Shown here piece after piece: positions 7,727 to 58,566 of a stretch of DNA of 64,000 nt. Every line of letters starts with the position of its first letter. Positions within the stretch are counted from its first letter, which is position 1. The position numbers were made by a program, and so were the translations under genes. The notes beneath the pieces are model-generated. The model was not told the origin of the DNA. It saw nothing but the letters and a program-made list of their open reading frames with translations, and ran no database searches. This DNA is from Escherichia phage vB_EcoM_JNE01: the sequence record OR670491; one strand, written 5' to 3'.

Positions 7727-7924
7727 ATGGCTAAACAACCTAAGAAAAAAGAACCTGAAGTTAAAGTTAAGAAAGTTAAAGTTATTCAATCTAAAGAACA
7801 ACGTAATTACGAACTACGTAAAGCAGAAACCCTATCAGGTCTTCAAGCTCTACGTAAACAAGGTGTTCTAACTCGTGCTCAATACCGTGAGATAGTAGCA
7901 CAAAAAGGTTATTGGTCCATTTGA
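7727..7924 (+). CDS. small basic protein
   Basis: 65 aa, lysine-rich N-terminus, RBS aaggag 7 nt upstream. Confidence 0.45.
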   Translation: MAKQPKKKEPEVKVKKVKVIQSKEQRNYELRKAETLSGLQALRKQGVLTRAQYREIVAQKGYWSI

Positions 7925-8020
7925 AGCAATAAACTGGAGTTCTTCATAAATACTTTCATAAGAATAATAATACTTTTTATGAAAATTAAAAAGAACTCCA
8001 TGTGTTATTTCAGTTTTTCA

Positions 8021-8047
8021 TCCCTGTCTTTTGGCAGGGATTTTTTC
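8021..8047 (+). terminator. intrinsic terminator
   Basis: TCCCTG-loop-CAGGGA followed by TTTTTT. Confidence 0.6.
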
Positions 8048-8065
8048 TATCCATAGGAAAGTGAG

Positions 8066-8800
8066 ATGAGCATAACTGATATATCCAATAAAGTTATTAA
8101 TGAATTGGTACAGAGAGGTTTTGCATCACCTATGATATATGGTTCGTGGTGCTACTATGAAAAGTACAAATTCGATGACAAGTATCCTAATGACATTGAT
8201 GTGATTAACATAGTACATGAAGAGTCGGAGGAAGGTGAATTTACTTTGGAGTTGAATTGTATTGACATTCCAGTTAATGTCGAATGCATGACTCTTCAGC
8301 ATTTTAGACAAGATTACAAGACTCCACAAATTAAGTACTTGGGTATAGGTCTTGCAGGTTCCAACAATTCATCAATCAATCACATCTTTTTATATCTAGG
8401 TGCAGTTCACAGTTACTATGCTGAACTTCCCAAAAATGTTGTTCGAACTATGTGCAGTTCATCATCGTCTAAGGCATTTAACAAAGGTGTTAAGAAACTG
8501 ACACTTGACGATGACTACGATAAAGATTTGGGTCTAAAAAACATCTGGCATAGCATTCATTTCATTTCTATAGTAGATTCATATTACAAGTCCTACGATG
8601 ATAGTCTTAATGTTGCAGAATATGCGTTGTATACTGAATATAACATGTTGCGTTGTATCCCGATGCGTGATATGATATATAAAATTTACGAGGAAACTGA
8701 AGGTTCTCTTCAGGATAAGGCTCAAGCAGTCATAGACTATGCAAAGCCTTTACGTAACAAATTAATGACAGAATTTCGTGCCTTATACCCAAAGGAGTGA
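8066..8800 (+). CDS. hypothetical protein (possible minimal nucleotidyltransferase fold)
   Basis: 244 aa; N-terminal YGSW...DIDVI loosely fits GS...DxD of Pol-beta-type NTases; RBS ggaaag. Confidence 0.45.
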   Translation: MSITDISNKVINELVQRGFASPMIYGSWCYYEKYKFDDKYPNDIDVINIVHEESEEGEFTLELNCIDIPVNVECMTLQHFRQDYKTPQIKYLGIGLAGSNNSSINHIFLYLGAVHSYYAELPKNVVRTMCSSSSSKAFNKGVKKLTLDDDYDKDLGLKNIWHSIHFISIVDSYYKSYDDSLNVAEYALYTEYNMLRCIPMRDMIYKIYEETEGSLQDKAQAVIDYAKPLRNKLMTEFRALYPKE

Positions 8801-8867
8801 TATAATGAAAAAACATACAGGAAAACAGCCGTTCCATTAGGTTAATTTAACTTAAAGGAGACTATAT

Positions 8868-9392
8868 ATGTTTTTTGAACAATCTTTTATTCTGTACTAC
8901 GATTCTGGTAAAGTTGAATACACTGATAACCTTTTTGAAGTTATCAACCGAATGGGTGGAGTTGATAGTTTTCATGCTGCAATGAAATTCAATCTAGGTG
9001 AATTCAACAAACGTAACGGTAAACTGTATAATATCAGTACTGGATTTTTCTTGTGCAATGCTAAAGGCTTGATGATTTCCCCTGATCTGTTATACGATGA
9101 GTATCAGATTGCATGGGATGAATTTTGGAAGAATAAGCGTAAAGCTATTGATGACAAATTCAAACACAACAGGTCTTGGCGTTTTAAACACAGTCAAGTT
9201 CGTTACAAACACCCACATACTCAACAAGAACGTCGCATGGCATGTGCAGTTCAAAAAGATGAGGGTGAACCTAGTATTCGTGGTAAACGCAAAATGCGTT
9301 CTATCCCTTCTTTATGGGATGATAAAAAGACAAGACACAGTACTGGATGGAAAACTAGTACTAAGCGTAAACATCAATACAAAGGGAGCTAA
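8868..9392 (+). CDS. hypothetical protein with basic C-terminal tail
   Basis: 174 aa, RBS aaggag; C-terminus rich in K/R/H. Confidence 0.45.
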   Translation: MFFEQSFILYYDSGKVEYTDNLFEVINRMGGVDSFHAAMKFNLGEFNKRNGKLYNISTGFFLCNAKGLMISPDLLYDEYQIAWDEFWKNKRKAIDDKFKHNRSWRFKHSQVRYKHPHTQQERRMACAVQKDEGEPSIRGKRKMRSIPSLWDDKKTRHSTGWKTSTKRKHQYKGS

Positions 9393-9420
9393 TGCTCCCT
9401 ATTTTTATGGATACAATAAA

Positions 9421-9759
9421 ATGAATACCAATGACCGACACACAATTATAGTAGAACTAGGCTACATTGAAATTGAAAATTGTAGTATTGATAAAATGAT
9501 TGAAGTACTACAAAAGTATCGTTCGGAATATGACGGATACATGTCACTCGTCCCTGAAGGTGGGTATAGTGGTTTTGACGGTTATAAAATCCTTTTATCA
9601 CGAGATGAAACTGATGAAGAAATTATTGCTCGTCATGCAGCAGAAAAGAAACGTAAAGAGGATGCTGAACGTACTGAAATGAATCGTTTAATGCAAAAGA
9701 AATCATTGAATGCTTCTCAAAAAGAAACTCTTATTAAATATATCCAGGAATATATGTAA
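9421..9759 (+). CDS. hypothetical protein
   Basis: Coding-looking C-terminal part of ORF-track 9097..9759; N-terminal extension overlaps previous gene and looks non-coding, so start placed at ATG 9421 (uncertain). Confidence 0.4.
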   Translation: MNTNDRHTIIVELGYIEIENCSIDKMIEVLQKYRSEYDGYMSLVPEGGYSGFDGYKILLSRDETDEEIIARHAAEKKRKEDAERTEMNRLMQKKSLNASQKETLIKYIQEYM

Positions 9760-10415
9760 TGAAAAATATCACACAAGAGAAGATCCTGTACCTCGCAAAA
9801 TATAATGGTGGTTTTAATATCCAAAGCTGTGAGTACACTGGAAATATGGCTAAAATACTTGACTCTCTATTAAGTCTAGGATTGATTCGTTGGGATACTA
9901 ATGAACTTTGGTATGAATATGCTGGACAGCAATGGGAAAGTGATTATGACCATGCAATCCATTCATATACCATTACTAAAGCAGGTGAAGTTCGTTTAGC
10001 CATTATGCGTTGTGCCTATACCTATAAAAACTTCAAAGGTGAAGAGAAACATATCCGACGTAATCAAGAACTCATTCATCTCATGGGTGAAGCTGGTATC
10101 AAGATGGATGTTTTGTTGAATGAACCACGTTGGGTTAACAATCTCACCAAAGCAGAGTCGAAAGCACTACGATACATTACAGAACAAGAAGTTCAACCTT
10201 CTAAACCGGAAAAAGTACTACAAGGTGATGGTGAGTTAAGTCTTCAAAATGTGTTCGAAAGTACCAGTACTGAAAGTATTTCTGATATATCAGTCCAGAT
10301 GGCAATCAAAGCTATGGAGCTTTTTAAGACCCAATACGAAGGTACAAGTGCAGATGAAGTAGAACGTGAGTTCATTACTCGTGTACAAATTGCGTTACAT
10401 AAAAATAAAAAGTAG
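9759..10415 (+). CDS. hypothetical protein
   Basis: 218 aa ORF with ATG overlapping upstream stop. Confidence 0.5.
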   Translation: MKNITQEKILYLAKYNGGFNIQSCEYTGNMAKILDSLLSLGLIRWDTNELWYEYAGQQWESDYDHAIHSYTITKAGEVRLAIMRCAYTYKNFKGEEKHIRRNQELIHLMGEAGIKMDVLLNEPRWVNNLTKAESKALRYITEQEVQPSKPEKVLQGDGELSLQNVFESTSTESISDISVQMAIKAMELFKTQYEGTSADEVEREFITRVQIALHKNKK

Positions 10416-10421
10416 GTTCAT

Positions 10422-10601
10422 ATGAAAATTTTACTTGTACTAATAGCCGTAGTTATGGTATTATCTTGTTCAGTTAGTAATGGTAAGTACATTTACATGT
10501 CTGCGTTCGAGGAAGCACCGACAAACTGTGTACAAACTCATTCAGGTCTTATGCTAGTTAATGGCAGACCTTCAATTGAATACTTATGTATAGGTGATTA
10601 A
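10422..10601 (+). CDS. small putative lipoprotein
   Basis: 59 aa ORF not in track: MKILLVLIAVVMVLSCSVSN has signal peptide plus lipobox-like LSC. Confidence 0.35.
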   Translation: MKILLVLIAVVMVLSCSVSNGKYIYMSAFEEAPTNCVQTHSGLMLVNGRPSIEYLCIGD

Positions 10602-10604
10602 ATT

Positions 10605-10835
10605 ATGAAATTATTGTGTATTGCTATTGTTTCTTCTATTGTATTTCTAAGTGGGTGTGCACCTAAAGTTAATGAGATGGATGCTGAACTCATCCGTCTT
10701 GGATTGACTAAACTCAATCACGATGGTACACTGTATGCATGTCATGAAATGCGTCACGGTCAAGATCTGAACTTAATGTGCAGAAAGATTGTGAATCGTA
10801 AACGTATTAATACAATCCCAAGGGATGTACAATGA
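10605..10835 (+). CDS. small putative lipoprotein
   Basis: MKLLCIAIVSSIVFLSGC, signal peptide with lipobox LSGC. Confidence 0.5.
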   Translation: MKLLCIAIVSSIVFLSGCAPKVNEMDAELIRLGLTKLNHDGTLYACHEMRHGQDLNLMCRKIVNRKRINTIPRDVQ

Positions 10836-11053
10836 AAGCAAAAGAATTAGCAGAATTACTGTTACAACATCCTGACGCAGAAGTTATTGTTTGTGATGAA
10901 GAAATGTTTTTAGTTAATGCGTCTAAAGTAACGGTTTATGAAAAAGATGAGATGATAAAAGAAGGTGATGGTAGTACCAAATCGGAAGACCTTACTTCTC
11001 TTGGAATCTACGATTATCCAATTTGTAATACACAAGTTATTTTTATTTCATGA
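10832..11053 (+). CDS. hypothetical protein (N-terminus paralogous to 34374 gene)
   Basis: MKAKELAELLLQHPDAEV versus MKAKDLAALLMQNPEMEV at 34374. Confidence 0.45.
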   Translation: MKAKELAELLLQHPDAEVIVCDEEMFLVNASKVTVYEKDEMIKEGDGSTKSEDLTSLGIYDYPICNTQVIFIS

Positions 11054-11060
11054 GGAAACT

Positions 11061-11420
11061 ATGAGTGATTATGTTGGATTCCTATACCGCTTTGGTGTTG
11101 CACAAGAAAAACACATCATCCGTATGCCAGCATATGGTGAGAAAGGATGGTATAAGAGTATTATCAGTGTAGGTGCATTTCGTGACCGTGAAGCAGTATA
11201 CTTCCTTAAGAGTCTCAGTGATGAACCTATTCGCTTCTCACTTCAGCGTTTATCAGAATGGGAGGAAAGTAATAAAATCACAGCAGAATCAATGCAAGCC
11301 GTATGTGGTATTCAAAATTATGTCCATCCATATGACAATCTTCCTTGTACTGTGCATAATTCAGTGTTTGACTTTTATGCAGCAGTAGGGTATGATTATA
11401 AAAAGAAACGTTACATTTGA
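11061..11420 (+). CDS. hypothetical protein
   Basis: Start refined to ATG 11061 with RBS gagga; ORF-track 10965 start overlaps previous gene. Confidence 0.5.
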   Translation: MSDYVGFLYRFGVAQEKHIIRMPAYGEKGWYKSIISVGAFRDREAVYFLKSLSDEPIRFSLQRLSEWEESNKITAESMQAVCGIQNYVHPYDNLPCTVHNSVFDFYAAVGYDYKKKRYI

Positions 11421-11439
11421 ATTTCAATGGGGATTTAAA

Positions 11440-12057
11440 ATGACAGCAGCCGACAAGTACTGGTGGATTTACAACCACGCCTCATTCGTCAACAAAGATT
11501 TAGTATATCCAAAGATTGAGATTGAACCACATAACGTATGCCCTGATACCAATCGCATTGAAGACCATGAATATCTAAATACAAAGGTTCAGTACTGGGT
11601 AGAGTTGATGACCCCTGAATTCGATGAAGATTCACAAAACTGGATTCTTTCACACGATTATCAGTTAGATTGTGGTGGTGATACCTTTGAAGAAGCAATT
11701 GATGCAGTGTACAATAAGGTTTTGGAACGTTACGGTACATACAAACAAGAAGATGCAGATGCGTTATTTGATTCATTGTTTAAAAAATCATCACAACCAA
11801 ATCCAGCATACCAGCAATTTAGCAATCCACATGAACGATTATACAGTGCTACGTTTCTGTTGTTGAATTACGATGACAAGTTCTCGCTGATTGATAGCAT
11901 AGATACTCGTAAAAATACAATAAAGTCCTTGCAGAAGTACATTGCTTCTTGTACAATAGAGCAATCAGAGAAAGCAAAGATTGCATTAGAAGATGAAGAA
12001 TGTTTGCTTTGGTTGCAAGAACTATCACTTAAAACAGGCGTGGATTTATTACTATGA
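11440..12057 (+). CDS. hypothetical protein
   Basis: Start refined to ATG 11440 (RBS gggga); 206 aa. Confidence 0.5.
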   Translation: MTAADKYWWIYNHASFVNKDLVYPKIEIEPHNVCPDTNRIEDHEYLNTKVQYWVELMTPEFDEDSQNWILSHDYQLDCGGDTFEEAIDAVYNKVLERYGTYKQEDADALFDSLFKKSSQPNPAYQQFSNPHERLYSATFLLLNYDDKFSLIDSIDTRKNTIKSLQKYIASCTIEQSEKAKIALEDEECLLWLQELSLKTGVDLLL

Positions 12058-12422
12058 ACAGTAAACTGGAAAAACTAATTGAAGAACTTCGACGGATGCC
12101 GCCAATTGAGCAAGTTGGCAATTACAAGCGTTATCGCGTTATAGCACGAGCACTGGATAAGAAAGGTCGAGTACTGGCAACTCGTACCAACTCTTATACA
12201 CAAACTCATCCTAAACAGAAAGGGTTTGCGATTCGTGCTGGACGTCCACAAGGTGAGTTTCTTCATGCTGAAATTTCATGTTTACTGGCTGCACGGGCTG
12301 AAGTTCATACTCTGTTGATTGCACGAGTCAGTAAAGATGGCATTCCAGTTCCAGCTAAACCATGCGAGATTTGCACTTTAGCTATCCAAGAATATGGAGT
12401 AAAAGAAATTATTCACACATGA
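12054..12422 (+). CDS. cytidine/deoxycytidylate deaminase family zinc-binding protein
   Basis: HAE (HAEISCL) and PCxxC (PCEIC) zinc-binding motifs of the CDA fold; 122 aa. Confidence 0.6.
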   Translation: MNSKLEKLIEELRRMPPIEQVGNYKRYRVIARALDKKGRVLATRTNSYTQTHPKQKGFAIRAGRPQGEFLHAEISCLLAARAEVHTLLIARVSKDGIPVPAKPCEICTLAIQEYGVKEIIHT

Positions 12423-12643
12423 AAACTGAATACTACGATAAACATACTGTATTCTATACTAAATCCACTATACTGTATTATTACATATTTGAACCTAATT
12501 ACTGTTTACAGATAACAACCTACGCAAATGGTAGATTTAAAGATGTAAACTTCCCATTAACCGATTTAGCAAAACATATCAGTACTGAACATTTCATTAA
12601 TTTAGTACAAGTATATTGTAAACCAAACCCTAACAACACTTAA
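12419..12643 (+). CDS. hypothetical small protein (uncertain)
   Basis: ATG overlaps deaminase stop (ATGA) but region is AT-rich and repeat-containing; may be non-coding. Confidence 0.25.
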   Translation: MKTEYYDKHTVFYTKSTILYYYIFEPNYCLQITTYANGRFKDVNFPLTDLAKHISTEHFINLVQVYCKPNPNNT

Positions 12644-12658
12644 ACTAAGGAGTCAATA

Positions 12659-13021
12659 ATGGCTAAAACAATTTCAATGAAAGACGATACCGTTGGTATT
12701 CGCAAAGATGGTTTCTATGGTTTCTCATGGACTACCCTATTCTTCGGTCCAATCCCTGCACTATTCCGTGGTGATTTCCTAACATTCCTTGGTGTAGTAG
12801 CTGTGTACGTAGTTCTTAACGTATTCACTATGGGTATTCTCGGAACCCTAGCTATGGTAGTATGGGCGTTCATGTACAACAAATATTACACCCAAAGCCT
12901 ACTCAAGAAAGGTTTTAAATTCAATGGCAGTGATGAAGACAACAAAGAAGCAGCAATGTATTTGCATGTGGAATTGAACTCTCATAACACGGTTGATAAA
13001 AACAAAGGTCCAGAGGTCTAA
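12659..13021 (+). CDS. membrane protein
   Basis: 120 aa with two hydrophobic segments; RBS aaggag. Confidence 0.5.
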   Translation: MAKTISMKDDTVGIRKDGFYGFSWTTLFFGPIPALFRGDFLTFLGVVAVYVVLNVFTMGILGTLAMVVWAFMYNKYYTQSLLKKGFKFNGSDEDNKEAAMYLHVELNSHNTVDKNKGPEV

Positions 13022-13200
13022 TGGAAATCTTTAAAAAAGATTATGATGGGGAAAGTCTTTATGATATGCAGCGTGACGTACACGAAGCGTTTGATTCAAG
13101 ATTTAACCCATTAGCCGACCAGATTCCACAAGATGAATTTGGTTTTCAAGAAGGTACATTCACAGTAACTATTACCTGGACACCGGATGAGAATAATTAA
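13021..13200 (+). CDS. hypothetical small acidic protein
   Basis: 59 aa ORF, ATG overlapping upstream stop (TAATG). Confidence 0.35.
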   Translation: MEIFKKDYDGESLYDMQRDVHEAFDSRFNPLADQIPQDEFGFQEGTFTVTITWTPDENN

Positions 13201-13303
13201 ACTTTTGATTGGCTTATTAGCAATGATATTGTTTTTTATATGTTCCGCTCCAATTAATACTATGGTGTTGATTTGGGCAGTTGTAATTTTAGCAGTACTT
13301 TAA
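13187..13303 (+). CDS. small hydrophobic peptide (uncertain)
   Basis: 38 aa, single predicted TM helix, followed directly by terminator. Confidence 0.25.
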   Translation: MRIIKLLIGLLAMILFFICSAPINTMVLIWAVVILAVL

Positions 13304-13327
13304 AAGCACCCTAGTGGTGCTTTTTTC
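13304..13327 (+). terminator. intrinsic terminator
   Basis: GCACC-CTAGT-GGTGC then TTTTTT. Confidence 0.6.
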
Positions 13328-13464
13328 ATTTGTACAAATAAAAACCTATCTACCCTTTCATTGATTCAGGTCAAAAGAAACATAGCGTTCTGGAGCTATA
13401 ATGTTGTCTTGTGGAGTTAAATAACTTCACCCCAGATGAATTATAGAATACAAGGAAGAATTAA

Positions 13465-15267
13465 ATGCAACTAGATAAACTTTACACGGACGTGACTAAT
13501 TTCCTCAATCAGAACAATTCTGACCTAACCAACGAAAACGCGAATAAGGATGCTAAATGTGTCAATACCCATAGAGACTTGCTTGCAGGTATTCTTTCTA
13601 AACACTATTCACAAGATGTTATTGCACCCGACCTGATGCAATGGCATAATGATGGATATGGTCATATTCATGATTTGGACTACTATATTAGCCCGTTAAC
13701 TAACTGTTGCTTAGTAAATTACCCTGATATGCTCAAGAACGGTTTTACTATTGGCTGTGCCAAAATTGAAGAACCAAAGAGTTTCAGTGTAGCGTGTACA
13801 GTACTGACACAGATTGTTCAAGCTGTTGCTAGTTCCCAGTACGGTGGTCAATCACTGGCACATATTGATGTTGGTTTAGAACCATACGTCGAAAAGTCAT
13901 GGAATAAGCTATTAGCTAAACAAAAGAAATACAATCTAAGTACTGAATATATTGAAGAAGAATTACGTAAAGAAGTATATGATGGTTGTCAAACTCTCCT
14001 GTACCAGACTAACTCTATGATTAGTACCAATGGTCAGGCTGCATTCATTTCTTTAAGCTTAGGACTGAATACTTCCAAATTTGGCAAACTAATCACTGAA
14101 CAGTACTTAAAAGTACATGAAAATGGTTTAGGTGTTAATAAGATCACTCCGGTGTTCCCTAAAGTGATTTTCTTTTTACAAGATGGCATTAACATGAATC
14201 CAAAGGATATTAGCTACGATATGAAGCAATTGGCTATGCGTTGTGCTTCTAAGCGTATATACCCTGATTTCGTTAGTGTTCCACTAAATCACAAGGTTAC
14301 TGGGGCATCAAGTGCTGTTACTCCTATGGGATGCCGAAGCTTCTTAGGTAAATGGGAAGATGCTAATGGAAACGAACAGTACAATGGTCGCTTCAACTTA
14401 GGTGTAGTGTCTATCAACTTACCGCTAATTGCTCTTGAAAGCACTTCAGATGGTGATTTCTTTGATAAGATAGACGAGCACATGAATATTGCGTACAGAG
14501 CACAGATGAACCGTGTAGAGCGTTTAAAAGGTACTAAGGCTAAACAGAACCCTATCCTGTTCATGGAAGGTGCTCTTGCTCGTCTTGGTGCAGAAGAAAC
14601 TATTGACAAACTCTTCTACGATGGTTATGCTAGTATCAGTATTGGATATGTAGGATTAGTTGAATGTTCAGAGATTTTGACTGGTTCAATCAGTAAAGAG
14701 TTCTGCATGTCAGTACTGAATTATATGAAAGTGAAATGTGATGAATTCAAGAATGAGAGCAATATAGCCTTTAGTCTATATGGAACTCCTGCTGAATCAT
14801 TATGTTACAAGTTTGCTCGTTGTATCGAGGTAAAACACCCATCAGTACTTAAACGTGACTACATTACAAACTCATTCCATCAACCTGTATGGGTTGAGAG
14901 TACTCCATTCGAGAAGTGGGTTTATGAAGAAGGATTTGCATATTTGAGTGCAGGTGGTAACATTAGCTACGTCGAGTCACCAAATCTTTCAAACAACATA
15001 CAAGCACTAGAAACACTAATAAACTACGCATATACTAAGATTCCTTACTTTGGTATCAACCAACCAGTGGATCGTTGTTATGAGTGTAATTTTGAAGGTG
15101 AGTTCAGTGTTGATAAGCACGGGTTCCATTGTCCAGTTTGTGATAACAGAAATGAGAAAACCATCTCTGTAATTCGTCGTGTATCTGGATACTTAGGAAA
15201 TCCGTCTTCCCGTGGTTTTAACAAGGGTAAACAGCAAGAATGTTGTGAGAGAGTACAACACAAATAA
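13465..15267 (+). CDS. nrdD: anaerobic ribonucleoside-triphosphate reductase (class III RNR)
   Basis: 600 aa; C-terminal Zn ribbon CYECNFEG...CPVCDN and glycyl-radical motif RVSGYLG; overall NrdD-like. Confidence 0.95.
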   Translation: MQLDKLYTDVTNFLNQNNSDLTNENANKDAKCVNTHRDLLAGILSKHYSQDVIAPDLMQWHNDGYGHIHDLDYYISPLTNCCLVNYPDMLKNGFTIGCAKIEEPKSFSVACTVLTQIVQAVASSQYGGQSLAHIDVGLEPYVEKSWNKLLAKQKKYNLSTEYIEEELRKEVYDGCQTLLYQTNSMISTNGQAAFISLSLGLNTSKFGKLITEQYLKVHENGLGVNKITPVFPKVIFFLQDGINMNPKDISYDMKQLAMRCASKRIYPDFVSVPLNHKVTGASSAVTPMGCRSFLGKWEDANGNEQYNGRFNLGVVSINLPLIALESTSDGDFFDKIDEHMNIAYRAQMNRVERLKGTKAKQNPILFMEGALARLGAEETIDKLFYDGYASISIGYVGLVECSEILTGSISKEFCMSVLNYMKVKCDEFKNESNIAFSLYGTPAESLCYKFARCIEVKHPSVLKRDYITNSFHQPVWVESTPFEKWVYEEGFAYLSAGGNISYVESPNLSNNIQALETLINYAYTKIPYFGINQPVDRCYECNFEGEFSVDKHGFHCPVCDNRNEKTISVIRRVSGYLGNPSSRGFNKGKQQECCERVQHK

Positions 15268-15274
15268 GGTACAT

Positions 15275-15604
15275 ATGTGCGATTTAAAACCAATAGTTGT
15301 TAACAAATACAAAGAACAGTATGATGTGTACATTGGTCGTGGGTCGAAATGGGGAAATCCATTCACCCACATTAAAGACAAGGAAACTAAAGCAGAATTC
15401 ATTGTTGCGACCCGCGAAGAGTCAATTGAGAAGTTCAGAGACTATATTCTGGAACGTATCGAAAAGGGTGAAGTTCAAATTGATGAACTCCTTGAACTCG
15501 CTGGGAAACGTCTTGGTTGCTTTTGTAAGCCCAAATCATGTCATGGTGATGTTCTTGTGGAAATAGTGAGTGCTATACTAGATGAACTATCAGACGATAA
15601 TTAA
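15275..15604 (+). CDS. DUF4326-like protein
   Basis: VYIGRGSKWGNPF motif; start refined to ATG 15275. Confidence 0.45.
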   Translation: MCDLKPIVVNKYKEQYDVYIGRGSKWGNPFTHIKDKETKAEFIVATREESIEKFRDYILERIEKGEVQIDELLELAGKRLGCFCKPKSCHGDVLVEIVSAILDELSDDN

Positions 15605-16052
15605 AGACGATTTAGTTAACGGGGAGGGAGTACGATGCTCTCTCTTCGTGAGTGGTTGTAGCCACGGATGTGATGGGTGTTTCAATGAAGAAGCATGGGA
15701 TTACAGAAGTGGATCAAAATTCAGTACTGCTGAAGTTGAAGTTATTCTTAAAGAGTTAGATAAGCCATATGTTACCGGATTATCTTTACTTGGGGGAGAT
15801 CCTCTTATGCCAAAGAATATCAGTACTGTTATTGATTTATGTAAAACTGTAAAAGAATTACATCCTACCAAAACAATTTGGTGCTGGAGTGGCTATACTT
15901 TAGAAGAGATTAAACTAAATCATTCTAAGGATATTCTTCAGTACTTAGATGTTTTAGTAGATGGTAAGTTTATTGAATCCGAAAAGAATCTAAGATTACC
16001 TTTTAGGGGTTCTAATAACCAACGTATTCTTCACAAAGACAAAGATTTTTAA
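15582..16052 (+). CDS. nrdG: anaerobic RNR activating protein (radical SAM)
   Basis: CSLFVSGCSHGCDGC radical-SAM cysteine cluster; immediately downstream of nrdD. Confidence 0.9.
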   Translation: MNYQTIIKDDLVNGEGVRCSLFVSGCSHGCDGCFNEEAWDYRSGSKFSTAEVEVILKELDKPYVTGLSLLGGDPLMPKNISTVIDLCKTVKELHPTKTIWCWSGYTLEEIKLNHSKDILQYLDVLVDGKFIESEKNLRLPFRGSNNQRILHKDKDF

Positions 16053-16057
16053 AATGT

Positions 16058-16082
16058 GGCTTCCCTAGTGGAAGCCTTTTTG
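16058..16082 (+). terminator. intrinsic terminator
   Basis: GGCTTCC-CTAGT-GGAAGCC then TTTTT. Confidence 0.65.
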
Positions 16083-16156
16083 CGTTCAAAGGAACTGTAG
16101 GTACGCGAATATGTGCATAAATACATGAACAAATATCTATAATAAAAGGGATATAT

Positions 16157-18856
16157 ATGTCAAAGAAAATATATGGTGGCTTAGATGTCACACATAATGT
16201 TACAGTGAAAGGGAAACGTACTGTTCAAGGTATCAATGATCAAGTTTTTGATTCCAATGGTAACATGGAACTTGATACTTATACTAAAGAAGAAATTCTT
16301 GACGTAATTAGTATGATGCCTTTGTCACATTATGGTACACATAACTATCTACCTGCTGGTGTAAGTGGTGACTTCAACGGAGCATCAGAAAACACATCAC
16401 AGCGTAGAAACAAAATTCTATTAGAAGATGACGGAACATTAGTAATGTTGCGTGCTGGTACAAACGGTAGTGTGGAAGGTCTATTCTACTCTTACCTAGC
16501 GAACGCATTAACTATTGAAGATATGGGTCGTACCGTGAATACTGGTAAGCAGTATCAACCAGGGTTTTTGGGTTCCACAAAAGTTGCTTTCGGTTTATAT
16601 AACACTGATAGTAATATAATGATTGGTCAATATAAAGATACAACTAATAGCACTACTGGTTATTTTGTATCTATTACAAACAATACACTTGATGATACTC
16701 AGCACTCAGGATTTATCATTAATCAGTACACTGACCTTTCACCACAAGGTAACATTGAATATGCAATGATGGCAGAAGATGGTTCAATCTATGTGTTTAG
16801 TTTAGATGTTGCAGATAATAAAATGCACATGATTGTACAGCGTATTGTGTTTAATATTAGTGCTGGTACATACACTACATCACGTATATCTGGATGGACT
16901 ACAAAAACATTCTACAATACAACTATCAGTGCTAATACTAATATAGTATTAACCAACAGAACTTATTCAACTGATATTGTAGATAAACCATATGCTCTTG
17001 TACCAACTAACCTACGTGGTATTGGTATATACATGACTTCATATGATTTATATGTTGCACAACAGCCTGGTACTCAGAACTTCCGTTTCCGTTTAAATGG
17101 GGACTTATGGGCGACAATGGCAGACTATAATACACGTCCACAACATAGTTTTAGTTTCAATTTCAATATGAGTACTAAACAATGTACGTTAGATACTGGC
17201 AATGACATTGGTTCATTCCAAGCACCTATCGTTATTACAAATACTGGGACTCAATTAGTTGCTACTGGTAATGCTCTAAACAAAGATGATTTTTATAACC
17301 ACAGTGGTGCACGTAACATTTATAGTGGATATTACTATTCAGTAGAAGGTGTTGCTTTCTGTACAATATGTCCAAACCTAGCAGAACCATTACACATGGA
17401 AAAAGGTCATTACCCAGCACAATCTGTTTATAGCATGATAAATGTTAGAGCAGTGAGTTGTACAGATTTTCGTGATGGAAGAGTTGGTCCGACATTTGGT
17501 TCAGCAGTAGGGTCATATATCAACGGTGTTGAATTGTTACCTGATAACAGTACTAAACAGTTCTCTCGTGCTTCCGGTACAGGTTCTTACCAACCATCAT
17601 ATGCAGTGCATAAGAGTACTCCTAACTTTACGTTCAAATCACTTTCAATGGGGACTATTCAGGGTTATGAGCCAACAGCAGAACGTGCAAACGTAGCTGA
17701 TACGACCAACAACCGAGTATTCATTAGTTCAATTTCAGGAAGTACAGTTACAACTAATGGTGGTGTACTAATATGTGGTCAACGTTACTCACAGTCGTTA
17801 TCATATGATAAGTACATGAATGGTACTAACGTAATTAGTGTTACTCAATCAGTACTTGACAACTTCAGAACAGCAGAGTATGCTAAAGTTGCTAGTTCAT
17901 GGAACCTATCAAGTGCATCGGGTAAAGACATGTCGTTGTTTGTTCCACAGCAATCTGACATTCCAGCGTTTGTGTTTCTCAGTTCAGTGACGAACAATAA
18001 CCAGAACTATATTCGTGTTGCAGAAGTTAATGTTAATACAAGAGTAGGGAACATTACTAGTATTACATTTAAACGTTTAGTTTATGAAAACGTTCATGGT
18101 GATAACTTCGTTTCGAATACATCAGGTTCATTCTCTTCTTCATCTGTTGGTATGACAATTTATGATGGTGGTTCATTCTATTTCTTAGGTGGTTCTGATC
18201 CATTAACACATAATACTATCGGTAACACAAATACACATATGTTCCGTGCTTATGTTACTAAATCCACTGCAACTATTGATAGCTTCATTATTGCGGGTGG
18301 TCACGCCAGTTATGAACAAGGTGCTCAACCAGCAGCGTTGCCTGGATTGGGTTTTGGTATTTTTGCTGCAATTGACTATTCTAACAAAATGACATTCGTA
18401 CCTTTTGGAACAACTATTGCTGATTATAACGCATGGACACAGAAAGCGACTGCAATAAACTTAGTATCACAAGACGTTGCACAAGGTTTTATCGTGTACT
18501 TCACCGAAGAAACACCAGTAATACTATCAGGTAAATCATTTACTCTACCTATTTCGAATATTGATTTAACAACTGTAAAAGCTAATCCAGCCAATACGAC
18601 GTTTTATCTTTATATTAAAATGGAGCAAGGTAATGTTAAATACCACATAACTACTGAAGTTATTTCAGAAGCTGGTACTTCTGCATATAACGTATTTTGG
18701 ATTGGAACAATTAAAACTAACTCTCTTCAAATTGAAACAGTAAATGTTGAAAAACGTTCTCGTTTGGATATATTTGGTGCATCACTAGAAGCAGCAGGTT
18801 CTTCATTCCCAGTAAGTTATGGTTTACCATCACAAACAGGAACTATCAACTGGTAA
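16157..18856 (+). CDS. long tail fibre protein (paralog 1)
   Basis: 899 aa, Ser/Thr/Asn/Gly-rich beta-rich composition; N- and C-terminal regions shared with the 19473 gene; C-terminal SSFPVSYGLPSQTGTINW. Confidence 0.7.
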   Translation: MSKKIYGGLDVTHNVTVKGKRTVQGINDQVFDSNGNMELDTYTKEEILDVISMMPLSHYGTHNYLPAGVSGDFNGASENTSQRRNKILLEDDGTLVMLRAGTNGSVEGLFYSYLANALTIEDMGRTVNTGKQYQPGFLGSTKVAFGLYNTDSNIMIGQYKDTTNSTTGYFVSITNNTLDDTQHSGFIINQYTDLSPQGNIEYAMMAEDGSIYVFSLDVADNKMHMIVQRIVFNISAGTYTTSRISGWTTKTFYNTTISANTNIVLTNRTYSTDIVDKPYALVPTNLRGIGIYMTSYDLYVAQQPGTQNFRFRLNGDLWATMADYNTRPQHSFSFNFNMSTKQCTLDTGNDIGSFQAPIVITNTGTQLVATGNALNKDDFYNHSGARNIYSGYYYSVEGVAFCTICPNLAEPLHMEKGHYPAQSVYSMINVRAVSCTDFRDGRVGPTFGSAVGSYINGVELLPDNSTKQFSRASGTGSYQPSYAVHKSTPNFTFKSLSMGTIQGYEPTAERANVADTTNNRVFISSISGSTVTTNGGVLICGQRYSQSLSYDKYMNGTNVISVTQSVLDNFRTAEYAKVASSWNLSSASGKDMSLFVPQQSDIPAFVFLSSVTNNNQNYIRVAEVNVNTRVGNITSITFKRLVYENVHGDNFVSNTSGSFSSSSVGMTIYDGGSFYFLGGSDPLTHNTIGNTNTHMFRAYVTKSTATIDSFIIAGGHASYEQGAQPAALPGLGFGIFAAIDYSNKMTFVPFGTTIADYNAWTQKATAINLVSQDVAQGFIVYFTEETPVILSGKSFTLPISNIDLTTVKANPANTTFYLYIKMEQGNVKYHITTEVISEAGTSAYNVFWIGTIKTNSLQIETVNVEKRSRLDIFGASLEAAGSSFPVSYGLPSQTGTINW

Positions 18857-30603: not shown

Positions 30604-31200
30604 ATGAAGAAATATCAGGTTTACTATAAAACTAATTTAGATTTAATTCATAAACTATCTACTACTGGAGAAGGTACTAAGCGTTATACTTTCAATAAGG
30701 TAACATTCAGATACTTCCCACAAAAAGTACTGACATTTGTTAAAAATTGCAAATGCATTGCTTGTGGTATCGAAGGAACCGAAGTTCGTATTGAACGTTC
30801 TCACAGTAACGATCCAATTTATGGTAAACCTCATCTCAATGTCTATGCAGTGTGTGGATTGTATGAAGTACTCATGACCGTAGATCATAACCATCTGGCT
30901 TCTAAAGGCGGGTCTGATTTAGAAAGTAATTTTAATACCATGTGCGTTCACTGTAATCAAATGCGTTCAAATAAAACTGAAACAGTTCAAGAATTTCTTG
31001 AAAATGTTAAAGGTCGAAATCTATTAGATGAACACATGAAACTTTTTTTCGATAAACAGGAAAAGAAAAAGAACCCTTCTAATAGAAAGCCAGAAACAAT
31101 CGCTTATGAAAAATGGTGGAATGAAGAACATTTATGGCATTACCGTGATTATCTTCGTAAATTGAAAAAAGAAGAAAAAGCTTTACTTAAACAAAAGTAG
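30604..31200 (+). CDS. HNH endonuclease
   Basis: CxxC ... VDHNHLASKGGSD ... NFNTMCVHCN: HNH motif with zinc-binding cysteines. Confidence 0.7.
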   Translation: MKKYQVYYKTNLDLIHKLSTTGEGTKRYTFNKVTFRYFPQKVLTFVKNCKCIACGIEGTEVRIERSHSNDPIYGKPHLNVYAVCGLYEVLMTVDHNHLASKGGSDLESNFNTMCVHCNQMRSNKTETVQEFLENVKGRNLLDEHMKLFFDKQEKKKNPSNRKPETIAYEKWWNEEHLWHYRDYLRKLKKEEKALLKQK

Positions 31201-31608: not shown

Positions 31609-32006
31609 TGCTTAAAGATTTAGATTTTTCAAATTTAGAGATCATCAGTGCAGTGAAGAACATTACTGATATGGATGATGAAAAAGGTGTAATGGTAACT
31701 ATCACTTTCGTAAAGGAAGAGGATAGCTATAAGCATCTTACTGGAATTGAAGAACTAATCCACAAGACCAATCTCGAAAACGATGGTAAGCTTATCAAGC
31801 TTCAGGCATCCTATTCCCAAAAAACGTCATTTTTTGTAGACCTAAATAATGTAGTCAAGGTGGTATACAATCATCCTGACAACAAATACAGAAGCACAAC
31901 ACGAAACGAAGAAGCAGCCATCGACACTAATATCAAAGATGATGTCGAATTTGTTAATACAGTTTTTGAGCGTTGTGCACCTGAATTGAAAAAAGTATAC
32001 TTATAG
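31608..32006 (+). CDS. hypothetical protein
   Basis: Start at ATG 31608 overlapping upstream stop (TAATG); ORF-track start 31593 also possible. Confidence 0.45.
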   Translation: MLKDLDFSNLEIISAVKNITDMDDEKGVMVTITFVKEEDSYKHLTGIEELIHKTNLENDGKLIKLQASYSQKTSFFVDLNNVVKVVYNHPDNKYRSTTRNEEAAIDTNIKDDVEFVNTVFERCAPELKKVYL

Positions 32007-32007
32007 T

Positions 32008-32037
32008 TTGGGAAATACTCCAGAAAAGTGCTATAAT
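32008..32037 (+). promoter_or_regulatory. sigma70-like promoter with extended -10 (TGcTATAAT)
   Basis: ttggga (weak -35) then tgctataat at 32029-32037; directly upstream of the non-coding island. Confidence 0.45.
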
Positions 32038-32043
32038 GTATAG

Positions 32044-32568
32044 TGAAAATGACAATGGGCGGTGTAAGCCGGATAACGAGAACCTAATTCTCTTGAAAAT
32101 GTAAAGGATAGATGAGCTTTACCATTGTAGCGATGAGCAAAAGAAACCCGTAAGAGTACTAGCAGCCATTCCAACAAGGCATAAGAACTACGAATCACGG
32201 CGAAGCGGCTCAATAAAGAACTCCGACAGCATAACAGAGAGTTCCTCGATAGACTTATAAGGATCGCACCTTACCAGATTTGCTAAGGGAGTTTAACTCA
32301 ATAAATGCGGTCGCAATTTTTCACAAGAAAGTTGCGTCCAAATTTTGAGTAAACAAGTACTACTTTGGTCGAATAGAGTTAGTACTTTGTGCTGGGGATG
32401 AAAAGACCAGTGACCGTTGCATATGACTGCGATAGAGAGAAACAGAGCAACCCGCTTTCGTTCTCTTAAATTAGACGAGAAAGATCCGTCTAAAATTTGA
32501 GAAATTCGCAATTCGACAATTCCGATGCCATCAGCGTCAAGAAGAGACTTAATTGTCTCTTTTTTATT
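32044..32568 (+). ncRNA. candidate structured non-coding RNA (~0.5 kb), family unknown
   Basis: No credible ORF on either strand; GC-richer than flanks; own promoter and terminator; multiple hairpins; two ~33 nt imperfect direct repeats (A(C/G)AAGAAAG(T/A)T(G/C)CGTC(C/T)AAA(A/T)TTTGAG(T/A)AA) about 150 nt apart. Confidence 0.35.
32541..32568 (+). terminator. intrinsic terminator
   Basis: AGAGAC-TTAATT-GTCTCT followed by TTTTT. Confidence 0.6.
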
Positions 32569-32572
32569 ACTT

Positions 32573-32594
32573 TCATTCCCCTGCGGGGGGATGA
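32573..32594 (+). other. stable 9 bp hairpin with UGCG tetraloop
   Basis: TCATTCCCC-TGCG-GGGGGATGA, nine pairs including one G-U; no U-tract after it. Confidence 0.5.
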
Positions 32595-32700
32595 AATGTC
32601 CTCAACAAATCCCGTCAAGCTTTTAAAGTACAATATAAAGGAATGAATGAGTTTACGAAGTAAACGATATGAATTCTTGAGTTACGAAGGAACGAAGTGA

Positions 32701-33129
32701 ATGAGTAACACAGCGAATATTTCAAATAAATCTGAATTCACACAAGAGTTGTTTAATGTGTTTTTCAAATATCAAATATTAGAAGAGAGTCAATGCTTTC
32801 AGCTTTATTACAAACAAGTCGGTAGTACATACAACAACTACAAAGAACCTAATTTTTATAAAGAAATTTTGGATTTTGCAGTTAATATAAGAAATAACAG
32901 ACCAATAGCAATACTGTTTTTTGACAGATCTATTCCAGTAGAAGTACCTAATCACATTTACTTCATTGAACCAGAAGATTTATCTTCAAAGAATCAATTA
33001 GATTACTTAAGGAATTGTATACTGATAGTATGTGATGAAGTGAAGTATAACCGTCAGTTGAGATGGGATATACGTCATCAAAGAGTACTCAGGGACATGA
33101 ATCCCGAATTAGCCTTTATAATTAACTAA
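32701..33129 (+). CDS. hypothetical protein
   Basis: 142 aa; its start region (gaatgagt) is duplicated about 50 nt upstream as a 6-codon mini-ORF. Confidence 0.5.
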   Translation: MSNTANISNKSEFTQELFNVFFKYQILEESQCFQLYYKQVGSTYNNYKEPNFYKEILDFAVNIRNNRPIAILFFDRSIPVEVPNHIYFIEPEDLSSKNQLDYLRNCILIVCDEVKYNRQLRWDIRHQRVLRDMNPELAFIIN

Positions 33130-51995: not shown

Positions 51996-54115
<2,120 letters not shown>

Positions 54116-54145
54116 CTTAAACTACTATATTATGGAGTTATTATA

Positions 54146-54679
54146 ATGAACAAATTACAACAAATCCTCACGGATAACAAACCTGTCTATGAATATCGTG
54201 TAAAATTTGCTTTTGAGCCAAGCAACGAACAACTAAGTAAAGTAACACAACGCCTTATGGATCGTTATGATGCTTTCGAAGTTGGTGGCCTTAAGAAAAC
54301 TATCTTCATGGAAAAACCACTTGATTTTTATGATTTAGATTGTGGTGAAATTTGGATGTTTGATTTTAAATGTAACCGTGGTGTTCAATCAAACGTACTA
54401 ATGTATGAAATTGGTAATCTACTAAGCGTAACCGAAGCACTAATTCGTATTCGCAGTAAAGATGAACCACGTCAAATTGAAATGACTGATCTGGAAGATG
54501 ATATCGATTTTGATGATTATGAACCAGTTATTGGTGTACCATTTGGTGCTCCAGAAGACAGTACTGATATCGCTGGTCAGGAACGTGCTGAAACCGCAGT
54601 CAAAGATGCAATTGATGCAGTAAAAAAGGACAATAAATACTCTCAATATATGAGTGCTGGTTTTGGTAAAAAGGATTAA
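54146..54679 (+). CDS. hypothetical protein
   Basis: 177 aa. Confidence 0.45.
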   Translation: MNKLQQILTDNKPVYEYRVKFAFEPSNEQLSKVTQRLMDRYDAFEVGGLKKTIFMEKPLDFYDLDCGEIWMFDFKCNRGVQSNVLMYEIGNLLSVTEALIRIRSKDEPRQIEMTDLEDDIDFDDYEPVIGVPFGAPEDSTDIAGQERAETAVKDAIDAVKKDNKYSQYMSAGFGKKD

Positions 54680-58542: not shown

Positions 58543-58566
58543 TTCGAAAATAAAGAAAAAAAGTTC

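Follow-up and report, generated by a model that had tools for sequence, protein, structure and literature searches.

Large, intricately folded RNAs of unassigned role are rare, and OLE, GOLLD, ROOL and raiA each opened new biology. GOLLD and ROOL occur mainly in Firmicutes and their relatives. The phi29 pRNA acts in trans within a machine, where it forms a ring through intermolecular loop-loop pairs that covary as a pseudoknot would. At the T4 origins oriF and oriG, a middle-mode promoter drives a transcript that forms a persistent R-loop, and plasmids carrying T4 origins are amplified by the infecting phage; in ColE1, a folded RNA of ~550 nt (RNA II) primes DNA synthesis. T4-type promoter-early stem-loop (PeSL) modules mediate gene shuffling. 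ROOL and GOLLD are large ornate RNAs of phages and prophages, for which cryo-electron microscopy (cryo-EM) revealed RNA-only homo-oligomeric cages (bioRxiv 10.1101/2024.12.08.627333). Here we describe an island at positions 32007-32700 of a 64,000-nucleotide stretch of Escherichia phage vB_EcoM_JNE01 (sequence record OR670491; the whole stretch is called the window below). The island very likely represents a new family of large structured RNA.

Within the island, positions 32009-32617 form a self-contained cassette that is predicted to encode a highly structured noncoding RNA (ncRNA) of ~520 nt outside all Rfam 15 families. The original prediction, made from the letters of the window, had been of a novel structured RNA complete with a promoter and terminator of its own, and strong covariation and the lack of an Rfam 15 match bear it out. 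What could not be seen from one window is that the RNA is one of three paralogs in the genome of this phage.

Selection for RNA structure on the plus strand

Over 1.6 kb around the island, the window is 99.1% identical to Escherichia phage Turkey5 and ~79% identical to 121Q, PBECO4 and their relatives, ~350-kb jumbo myoviruses of the genus Asteriusvirus within the RaK2-like group. The identity to 121Q is unevenly spread: it is 79.5% for the 1.6-kb stretch with flanks, ~80% for the upstream gene and ~61% for the downstream gene, and the island itself is 86% identical over 97% of its length. The island is bounded by the TAG stop of the upstream coding sequence (32004-32006) and by the downstream coding sequence, which has its own start at 32701. 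As had been predicted, it holds no protein-like open reading frame (ORF), the longest being 72 and 60 amino acids, both on the minus strand, and it is richer in G+C (0.40-0.435) than its flanks (0.27-0.36). Substitutions relative to the 121Q ortholog fall by codon phase as 29/18/16 in the island, with no codon periodicity, versus 20/7/51 in the upstream coding sequence. The eight island indels relative to 121Q (1, 1, 1, 1, 2, 2, 2 and 5 nt) include no multiple of three, and the two flanking coding sequences have zero indels. Among 32 homologues, the longest stop-free stretches vary in strand, frame and place. The island sequence is non-coding.

Helices were found by an all-against-all scan of the alignment columns of 29 sequences and refined by hand, and the model (P1-P14 and three pseudoknots, PKa, PKb and PKc) was tested on alignments made by tools. 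Across 32 sequences the 94 modelled pairs were 91.5% canonical, compared with 39-44% when the partners were slid by 1-3 columns, and 50 of the pairs had changed on both sides (15-22 in the slid controls). The covariation score was 0.407 versus 0.06-0.09 after sliding, and none of 500 shuffles reached the observed value. Addition of RaK2 gave 33 sequences and a model of 85 pairs, which omits two helices misaligned by indels (P7 and P14); these pairs were 94.9% canonical versus ~40% when slid, 52 were compensatory and the score was 0.423. When folded separately, P7 and P14 form in nearly every sequence, with compensatory variants. Compensatory changes in related phages are thus well above both the slid and the shuffled controls and coding signal is absent, as is expected of structured ncRNA genes generally. 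The outcomes that had been named in advance as counting against the prediction, a frameshifted gene with homologues or a lack of covariation, did not occur.

G-U pairs outnumber A-C pairs by 173 to 18, and therefore the folded strand is the plus strand. The fold energy of the plus strand also beats that of shuffled sequences (z = -4.05), a comparison suggested with the original prediction. The minus strand does so as well (z = -3.44), so that fold energy alone cannot pick the strand and this check is not decisive. Some 100 positions do not vary at all among the aligned homologues, and many of these fall outside the helices of the model; the invariant stretches include GAAAAYGUA, GAUAGA, UAAGGGA, GACCGUUGCA and GCAACCCGCUU. 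Between the window and Turkey5 there are 11 differences in the RNA, all within 32134-32255, and one in each flanking coding sequence (828 nt of flanking coding sequence in total). Six of the 11 form exact compensatory double changes, of which P4 has two and PKa one. The 120-nt cluster of substitutions suggests a gene-conversion or recombination patch, and pairing is preserved either way. A helix joining the 5' and 3' ends found no covariation support in the column scan of aligned homologues. The plus strand is under selection for at least 15 helices and the three pseudoknots, which are listed here with the other parts of the island.

32009-32037 (+): promoter, with a -35-like TGGGAAA (32009-32015) and an extended -10 element TGCTATAAT (32029-32037)
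32044-32566 (+): structured ncRNA gene of ~520 nt, its putative ends placed from promoter and terminator
32060-32071 (+): P1, a variable hairpin predicted from folding, CGGU-GUAA-GCCG in the window
32090-32108 (+): P2 hairpin, closing the conserved 9-nt loop GAAAAYGUA; 3 of 5 pairs changed on both sides
32116-32131 (+): P3 hairpin, 100% paired, middle pair UA, CG or AU
32134-32212 (+): P4/P5 arm, with P4 (32134-32138/32208-32212) 98.8% paired and P5 (32148-32151/32197-32200) 100% paired
32203-32256 (+): PKa, a 3-bp long-range pairing of 32203-32205 with 32254-32256
32218-32244 (+): P6 hairpin, GAACUC/GAGUUC; 6 of 6 pairs changed on both sides
32258-32290 (+): P7 hairpin (32258-32262/32269-32273), then a conserved single strand, ACCA...GCUAAGGGAG
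32291-32354 (+): P8 arm of variable length, holding repeat copy 1 (32323-32352)
32357-32385 (+): P9 hairpin; 10 of 10 pairs changed on both sides; its loop (32368-32374) is the 5' strand of PKb
32368-32517 (+): PKb, 7 bp, GUCGAAU (32368-32374) with AUUCGAC (32511-32517)
32390-32412 (+): P10 hairpin, from covariation and alignment
32412-32451 (+): near-invariant strand GACCGUUGCA (32412-32421) and PKc, GUUGC (32416-32420) with GCAAC (32447-32451) in the P12 loop
32428-32510 (+): P11-P13, in which P11 (32428-32432/32506-32510) encloses P12 (32435-32439/32455-32459) and P13 (32462-32465/32499-32502)
32524-32538 (+): P14 hairpin, GAUGC/GCGUC, with the conserved loop CYAYCA
32539-32568 (+): intrinsic terminator, a 10-bp stem (32539-32548/32555-32564) and U run, -11.2 kcal/mol
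32571-32617 (+): post-terminator module, a hairpin (32571-32596) and the box CCTCAACAAATCCCGTCA (32600-32617), part of the conserved cassette
32618-32700 (+): leader of the downstream gene, with a 6-codon mini-ORF (32643-32663) and repeated TGAAT..GAGTTACGAAG units

In PKb, all seven pairs are compensatory and 100% paired in the 33 sequences. It takes up every base of the P9 loop, and its sequence differs among paralogs of one genome. PKc is invariant in 32 sequences, and the RaK2 version (UCUGC/GCAGA) amounts to two double compensatory changes. PKa occurs as AUG/CAU, AUA/UAU, ACA/UGU and AAG/CUU. P11, P12 and P13 are paired at 100%, 100% and 98.3%, respectively; an inverted repeat (I1) was found in this region, and the P12 loop is a conserved 15-nt sequence, AAACAGAGCAACCCG. 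Folds of individual sequences give UAAGG/CCUUA, UGAG/CUCA and UAGG/CCUA for P7, where UAAGGGA is invariant, and GAUGC/GCGUC and GACGA/UCGUC for P14, for which RaK2 has GAAGA/UCUUC as read from the alignment. Conserved strands, GAUGA and GA(A/U)G, lie on either side of P3.

Other parts are more plastic. A different self-complementary hairpin occupies the P1 position in every homologue, the P5 arm has a variable extension (32152-32196), and in Mimasvirus homologues P8 consists of no more than a 4-bp stem capped by a GAAA or UUUA tetraloop. The two imperfect direct repeats that had been noticed in the window lie at 32323-32352 and 32475-32504, the latter on an extension of P13, and have 24 of 30 bases in common (alignment score 36; shuffled sequences average 13 and reach at most 26). 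They constitute an optional 30-nt module that is found on the P8 arm, on the P13 arm, on both or on neither, depending on the homologue. A separate motif, GGGGATGAAA(A/T)G(A/T)CC, occurs twice as a direct repeat (D1), in the P10 loop (32394-32408) and in the 3' arm of the post-terminator hairpin (32587-32601).

Known families, homologues and a chromosomal copy

The comparison with Rfam 15 spans ROOL, GOLLD, OLE, raiA, HEARO, RNase P, tmRNA, 6S, group I and II introns, pRNA and small ribozymes. At the gathering score it returned zero matches in the whole window, and at E up to 10 it returned six chance-level matches (E 1.9-7) in 31900-32800. Nine homologues gave no consistent match either, the sole hit inside a copy being XaC1 to VqmR at E = 0.37, far below threshold; the covariance-model search proposed with the original prediction therefore ended with no Rfam 15 match for the window or the nine homologues. 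ARAGORN reported zero tRNA or tmRNA genes in the window. No paper on this RNA turned up in literature searches based on phage and genus names, ncRNA vocabulary and the invariant strings, and no RNA-seq study of a RaK2-like phage was found.

Several particular resemblances were tried and rejected. For a group I intron, there is no interrupted gene: the flanking coding sequences are complete, the cassette has its own promoter and terminator, and the flanks differ per locus. As for a group I core, the strand order found (P9 loop, P10, P11, P12, P13, P11', PKb') differs from the canonical P3-P7 order of these introns, and no group I covariance model matched. A likeness to J11/12 of the M1 RNA (AGAGCAAACCGC) scored 19 against rnpB, where the shuffle mean is 18.2, and no RNase P covariance model matched. 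In the hammerhead-like CUGAUGAG...GAAA, the base equivalent to A14 is paired and covaries in P4, and there was again no match to a hammerhead covariance model. The PA5oct transcripts ncRNA001 and ncRNA002, defined by RNA-seq, were considered as remote homologues, a match to which would have supplied evidence of expression; nhmmer --max found no similarity, and the invariant motifs are absent from them.

The nhmmer profile of the RNA matches 32045-32595 of the window with E = 3e-125. This is the sole copy there: blastn, a search for its motifs and nhmmer (E up to 10) all failed to turn up a second one. All members of the family reach nhmmer E values below 1e-50. Beyond Asteriusvirus, positions ~32080-32617 are 66-74% identical in Mimasvirus (CBB, GAP32, XbC2), Eneladusvirus (BF, pEa47, fHe-Yen9-04) and Erwinia phage Hallingskeid. 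In Xanthomonas phage XaC1 the similarity (69%) covers a shorter central stretch, and in Salmonella phage Munch and Klebsiella phage fENko-Kae01 (75-77%) it covers the 3' part, ~32410-32640; profile searches extended these three to near-full-length copies. RaK2 has a diverged full-length copy (E = 4e-53). Altogether, full-length homologues occur in ~70 records of RaK2-like jumbo phages, always in unannotated gaps of 600-900 bp, and the neighbouring genes differ from locus to locus. The region is thus conserved across genera and above the level of the neighbouring coding sequences, as structured ncRNAs generally are. No match was found in plasmid sequences.

Most sampled lineages have three to five diverged paralogs per genome, and exact-pattern scans of IMG/VR found two to four copies per jumbo-phage contig. 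A metagenome scan with the pattern CCGTTGCA..GCAACCCGC proved too loose, all 120 of 120 loci being chance matches by nhmmer. In 121Q the three copies lie at 192.8 kb, at 247.5 kb (the ortholog of the window copy) and at 326.6 kb, the last of these between the genes for endonuclease VII and the baseplate hub, a site shared with one copy each in BF, pEa47 and Hallingskeid. The three copies of Turkey5 are all on the plus strand, at 54,003-54,480, ~108,768-109,318 and 192,063-192,529; the second is the window copy, with coordinates derived from the window match. Paralogs within a genome are 60-70% identical and orthologs from different genera are closer to each other, and therefore the duplications are old. 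That three to five ancient paralogs have been kept in most sampled lineages suggests a core rather than an accessory role.

In ~70 published genomes, the RNA is unannotated or masked by small ORFs that are probably spurious. The gap between the two flanking genes carries no annotation in Turkey5, and in 121Q only a 51-amino-acid 'hypothetical protein' on the minus strand. GenBank records place such hypothetical proteins over the RNA as 121Q gp516, Yen9-04 g347 and g348, three Hallingskeid ORFs and RaK2 ORF014w (217 amino acids), located in that order at L002 3765-3920, L005 1757-1909, L007 1471-1975 and L165 946-1599. They disagree with each other in strand, frame and position.

The genes that follow the RNA also vary. 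At one locus they are a hypothetical gene and Dps. An ADP-ribosylglycohydrolase gene follows directly in Munch and Kae01 (L011 1835-2800 and L012 1842-2807) and after one small ORF in XbC2 (L003 2325-3251). On the upstream side, the window has a 198-amino-acid ORF with HNH endonuclease features (30604-31200, 0.8 kb before the RNA), the 121Q homologue of which, gp513, is annotated as an HNH endonuclease; the gene is absent beside other copies of the RNA.

Full-length E-type copies (a paralog lineage described below) were also seen in two bacterial assemblies, on a 299-kb contig of Enterobacteriaceae RIT714 (WJYB01000004.1, L162) and on a 2.8-kb contig binned as Clostridium (DPOH01000171.1, L161). 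Both contigs are probably jumbo-phage DNA. In E. coli, a search of 5,426 complete genomes found the RNA at full length in two, with 77% identity to the window and 80.6% identity to Serratia phage BF. In strain LR-29-1 (NZ_AP027515.1, L163) the copy spans 11840-12500 within an island of ~7900-18300 that adjoins ffs. This island contains an integrase gene that an IS3 insertion has split, as well as PDC-M45, a candidate defence system in PADLOC (DuOB, DUF488 and mSLOG-DUF4326 genes). Its phage homology is limited to the cassette (L163 11951-12496), which retains the phage-type promoter TGGGATG...TGTGATATAAT and has no phage gene downstream; a 303-amino-acid protein beside it has no phage homologue by tblastn. 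The mSLOG-DUF4326 gene near this copy and the ADP-ribosylglycohydrolase gene after the RNA in XbC2, Munch and Kae01 may be a coincidence or reflect a functional link. The presence of a complete copy with a phage-type promoter in a defence island suggests that the RNA is a point of conflict between phage and host.

Predicted transcript ends and the post-terminator module

The cassette has a sigma-70 extended -10 promoter (TGnTATAAT) at its 5' end and an intrinsic terminator (stem and U run) at its 3' end. The -10 element TGCTATAAT, placed at 32029-32037 in the original prediction, is preceded by TTGGGA 18 nt upstream. TGnTATAAT is present in nearly every aligned homologue, two having TCCTATAAT and one TGCTATACT, and all copies have a -35-like TGGGA(A/C)A or TGAAAC(G/A) upstream of the -10. 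From this arrangement we infer a transcription start at ~32043-32046; host sigma-70 RNA polymerase would transcribe the RNA from ~32044 and stop at ~32566. The same promoter class was named 'divergent RpoD-like', the second class, in the phage CBB paper, where 11 of 18 examples lie upstream of an ORF block with many genes for DNA synthesis (PMC5259590). The window has similar promoters at other sites. It also has two near-identical strong promoters 92 bp apart (58556-58594 and 58648-58686), of the form AAAAAAAGTT(C/G)TTGACAAG...TGTGATATAAT, both with a consensus -35 and an extended -10.

The predicted terminator is likewise present, and its stem covaries (AGAGAC/GUCUCU versus GUACAC/GUGUAC). 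Most copies end in such a covarying terminator, and one paralog lineage, designated E-type, has no 3' terminator hairpin. E-type paralogs (121Q, L166 ~2830-2880; L019) have a strong terminator-like hairpin and T run directly after the promoter (AAGGTGAC...GTCACCTTTTTTT), which could be a candidate attenuator.

The terminated transcript would be ~520 nt, leaving the last ~130 bp of the island to a conserved hairpin, a box of 18 nt and the leader of the gene that follows. The hairpin with its UGCG loop, first described as 9 bp, has 11 bp (32571-32581/32586-32596; -17.6 kcal/mol). It is kept in all paralogs, and the E. coli island copy has the module in full. Of the two arms of the hairpin, the 3' one is almost invariant, and changes in the 5' one are one-sided. 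Neither the hairpin nor the box, also written CCTCAACAAATCYCGTCA, occurs again in the window. The leader (32618-32700) is probably outside the terminated RNA. The mini-ORF that had been proposed to duplicate the start of the downstream gene does exist, three bases from where it had been placed, and the duplication itself shrinks to ~9 nt (TGAATGAGT) in common with that gene start. These ~9 nt match a motif, TGAATTGAG, that also follows other copies of the cassette. The downstream coding sequence (32701-33129) is itself unusual, with ~61% identity to its 121Q counterpart and weak codon periodicity (51/48/69); either it evolves very fast or its annotation merits re-examination.

Readings of function and comparison with described systems

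The RNA may fold into a compact, pseudoknotted particle. It would act in trans as a folded RNA, neither through antisense pairing nor on an adjacent gene, for two reasons: the neighbouring genes differ by locus, and the conservation of loops and junctions suggests a fixed partner or tertiary fold. We suggest, with low confidence, a ribonucleoprotein or RNA-only assembly needed in infection, akin to ROOL, GOLLD or the phi29 pRNA. PKb could be either an intramolecular H-type pseudoknot or a contact joining copies of the RNA, and the covariation fits both alike. It is possible, if on balance unlikely, that the RNA is the core of a machine needed for RaK2-like infection, in the form of RNA-only or RNA-protein assemblies joined by PKb or of a new ribozyme class, with the copy in the E. 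coli island serving as a decoy or phage-triggered sensor. If the assembly version were true, the three orthogonal, paralog-specific PKb 'codes' per genome would specify three separate assemblies. The RNA resides in culturable E. coli phages (121Q, PBECO4, phAPEC6 and Turkey5), which makes genetics, probing and cryo-EM feasible at once.

Several points weigh against a new family of structured RNA that ends at the terminator. The existence, ends and stability of the transcript are predictions from the sequence, and no protein partner was found. Shared ancestry of the 33 sequences inflates the covariation counts; the slid controls and the independent lineages argue against an artefact. The variable arms (P1, the P5 extension and P8) are poorly aligned and their pairs are less secure. 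In the E-type lineage, which has no terminator hairpin, the mature 3' end may differ or come from processing. Finally, the post-terminator hairpin and box are as conserved as the core, which a model in which the RNA ends at the terminator leaves unexplained.

The main rival is an RNA-primed replication origin like T4 oriF/oriG or ColE1, which would use the conserved G/C-rich hairpin and the box behind the terminator as a site of hybrid formation or replisome loading. Like those systems, the cassette would yield a promoter-driven transcript of ~0.5 kb (near the length of RNA II), is present at several loci per genome and is followed directly by conserved DNA, including the nearly invariant hairpin arm. 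The three copies share one strand at spacings of 55 and 83 kb, the 350-kb genome has a T4-like replisome, and a chromosomal island with exactly this cassette would be amplified by an infecting phage. The promoter class, too, is linked to DNA synthesis by its position mostly upstream of that gene block (PMC5259590). We nonetheless consider an origin improbable. The RNA has 15 covarying helices, three pseudoknots and numerous unpaired bases that stay invariant across genera, far more structure than any known primer RNA requires, and it is far richer in conserved tertiary structure than RNA II or the T4 origin transcripts. In addition, the terminator precedes the G/C hairpin, so that most copies terminate before it, no AT-rich unwinding element was identified, and the cumulative GC skew has no inflection at the site.

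The discrete boundary of the cassette, its multiple copies and the restriction of phage homology to it in the E. coli island would also fit a self-propagating or catalytic RNA whose own activity spread its copies through the genome: a free-standing ribozyme or a mobile element guided by RNA, along the lines of a group I or II intron derivative, a homing cassette, or an omega or bridge RNA. An HNH endonuclease gene 0.8 kb upstream in the window, the 11-substitution patch resembling gene conversion and the invariant junction sequences, typical of ribozymes, point the same way. However, the HNH gene is missing at other loci, the loci examined have no transposase, reverse transcriptase or recombinase as a regular neighbour, and no Rfam intron, ribozyme or guide RNA matched. 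That the paralogs occupy orthologous loci conserved between genera, with 60-70% identity to one another, indicates ancient duplication rather than recent mobility, and this explanation is distinctly improbable. A cis-acting leader or attenuator for the downstream gene or genes, whether riboswitch-like or by antitermination, is very improbable. The order of terminator, conserved hairpin and a leader running into the next gene would suit it, and the extra terminator-like hairpin after the promoter of E-type copies suggests regulated read-through, but the downstream genes are wholly different by locus (a hypothetical gene and Dps, ADP-ribosylglycohydrolase, or opposite-strand genes by the baseplate hub). 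At the endonuclease VII-baseplate hub locus both neighbours are on the opposite strand, and no phage gene lies downstream of the copy in the E. coli island. A decayed or frameshifted protein gene, or a set of small-protein genes, is barely credible, since the small ORFs that several GenBank records annotate inside the RNA differ in strand, frame and position by record, the region lacks codon periodicity and triplet indels, it is better conserved than the adjoining real genes, and its substitutions compensate for base pairing.

The proposed new family of structured RNA can be set beside the systems described at the outset. As with PeSLs, a conserved promoter and stem-loops bracket a module found at several sites in a T4-like genome; PeSLs are short regulatory repeats, whereas here ~480 nt of covarying RNA lie between promoter and stem-loops. 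OLE, raiA and HEARO are similarly large RNAs with a complex conserved fold that were found by comparative genomics. They differ in their hosts, their covariance models do not match, and no oapA or IscB gene adjoins the RNA described here. The phi29 pRNA is likewise a structured RNA encoded by a phage; it is only 174 nt long and single-copy, and there is no Rfam match between the two. ROOL and GOLLD differ in that their covariance models gave no match at E up to 10 and in that this RNA belongs to lytic enterobacterial jumbo phages, most sampled lineages of which have three to five paralogs. Yet they come closest in kind, being several hundred nucleotides long, with many helices and pseudoknots and many conserved unpaired nucleotides, and being encoded by stand-alone, phage-associated genes. 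Their loop-strand pairings could be intermolecular, as could those seen here: that PKb uses a whole loop of 6-7 nt and is specific to each paralog is compatible with an intermolecular contact.

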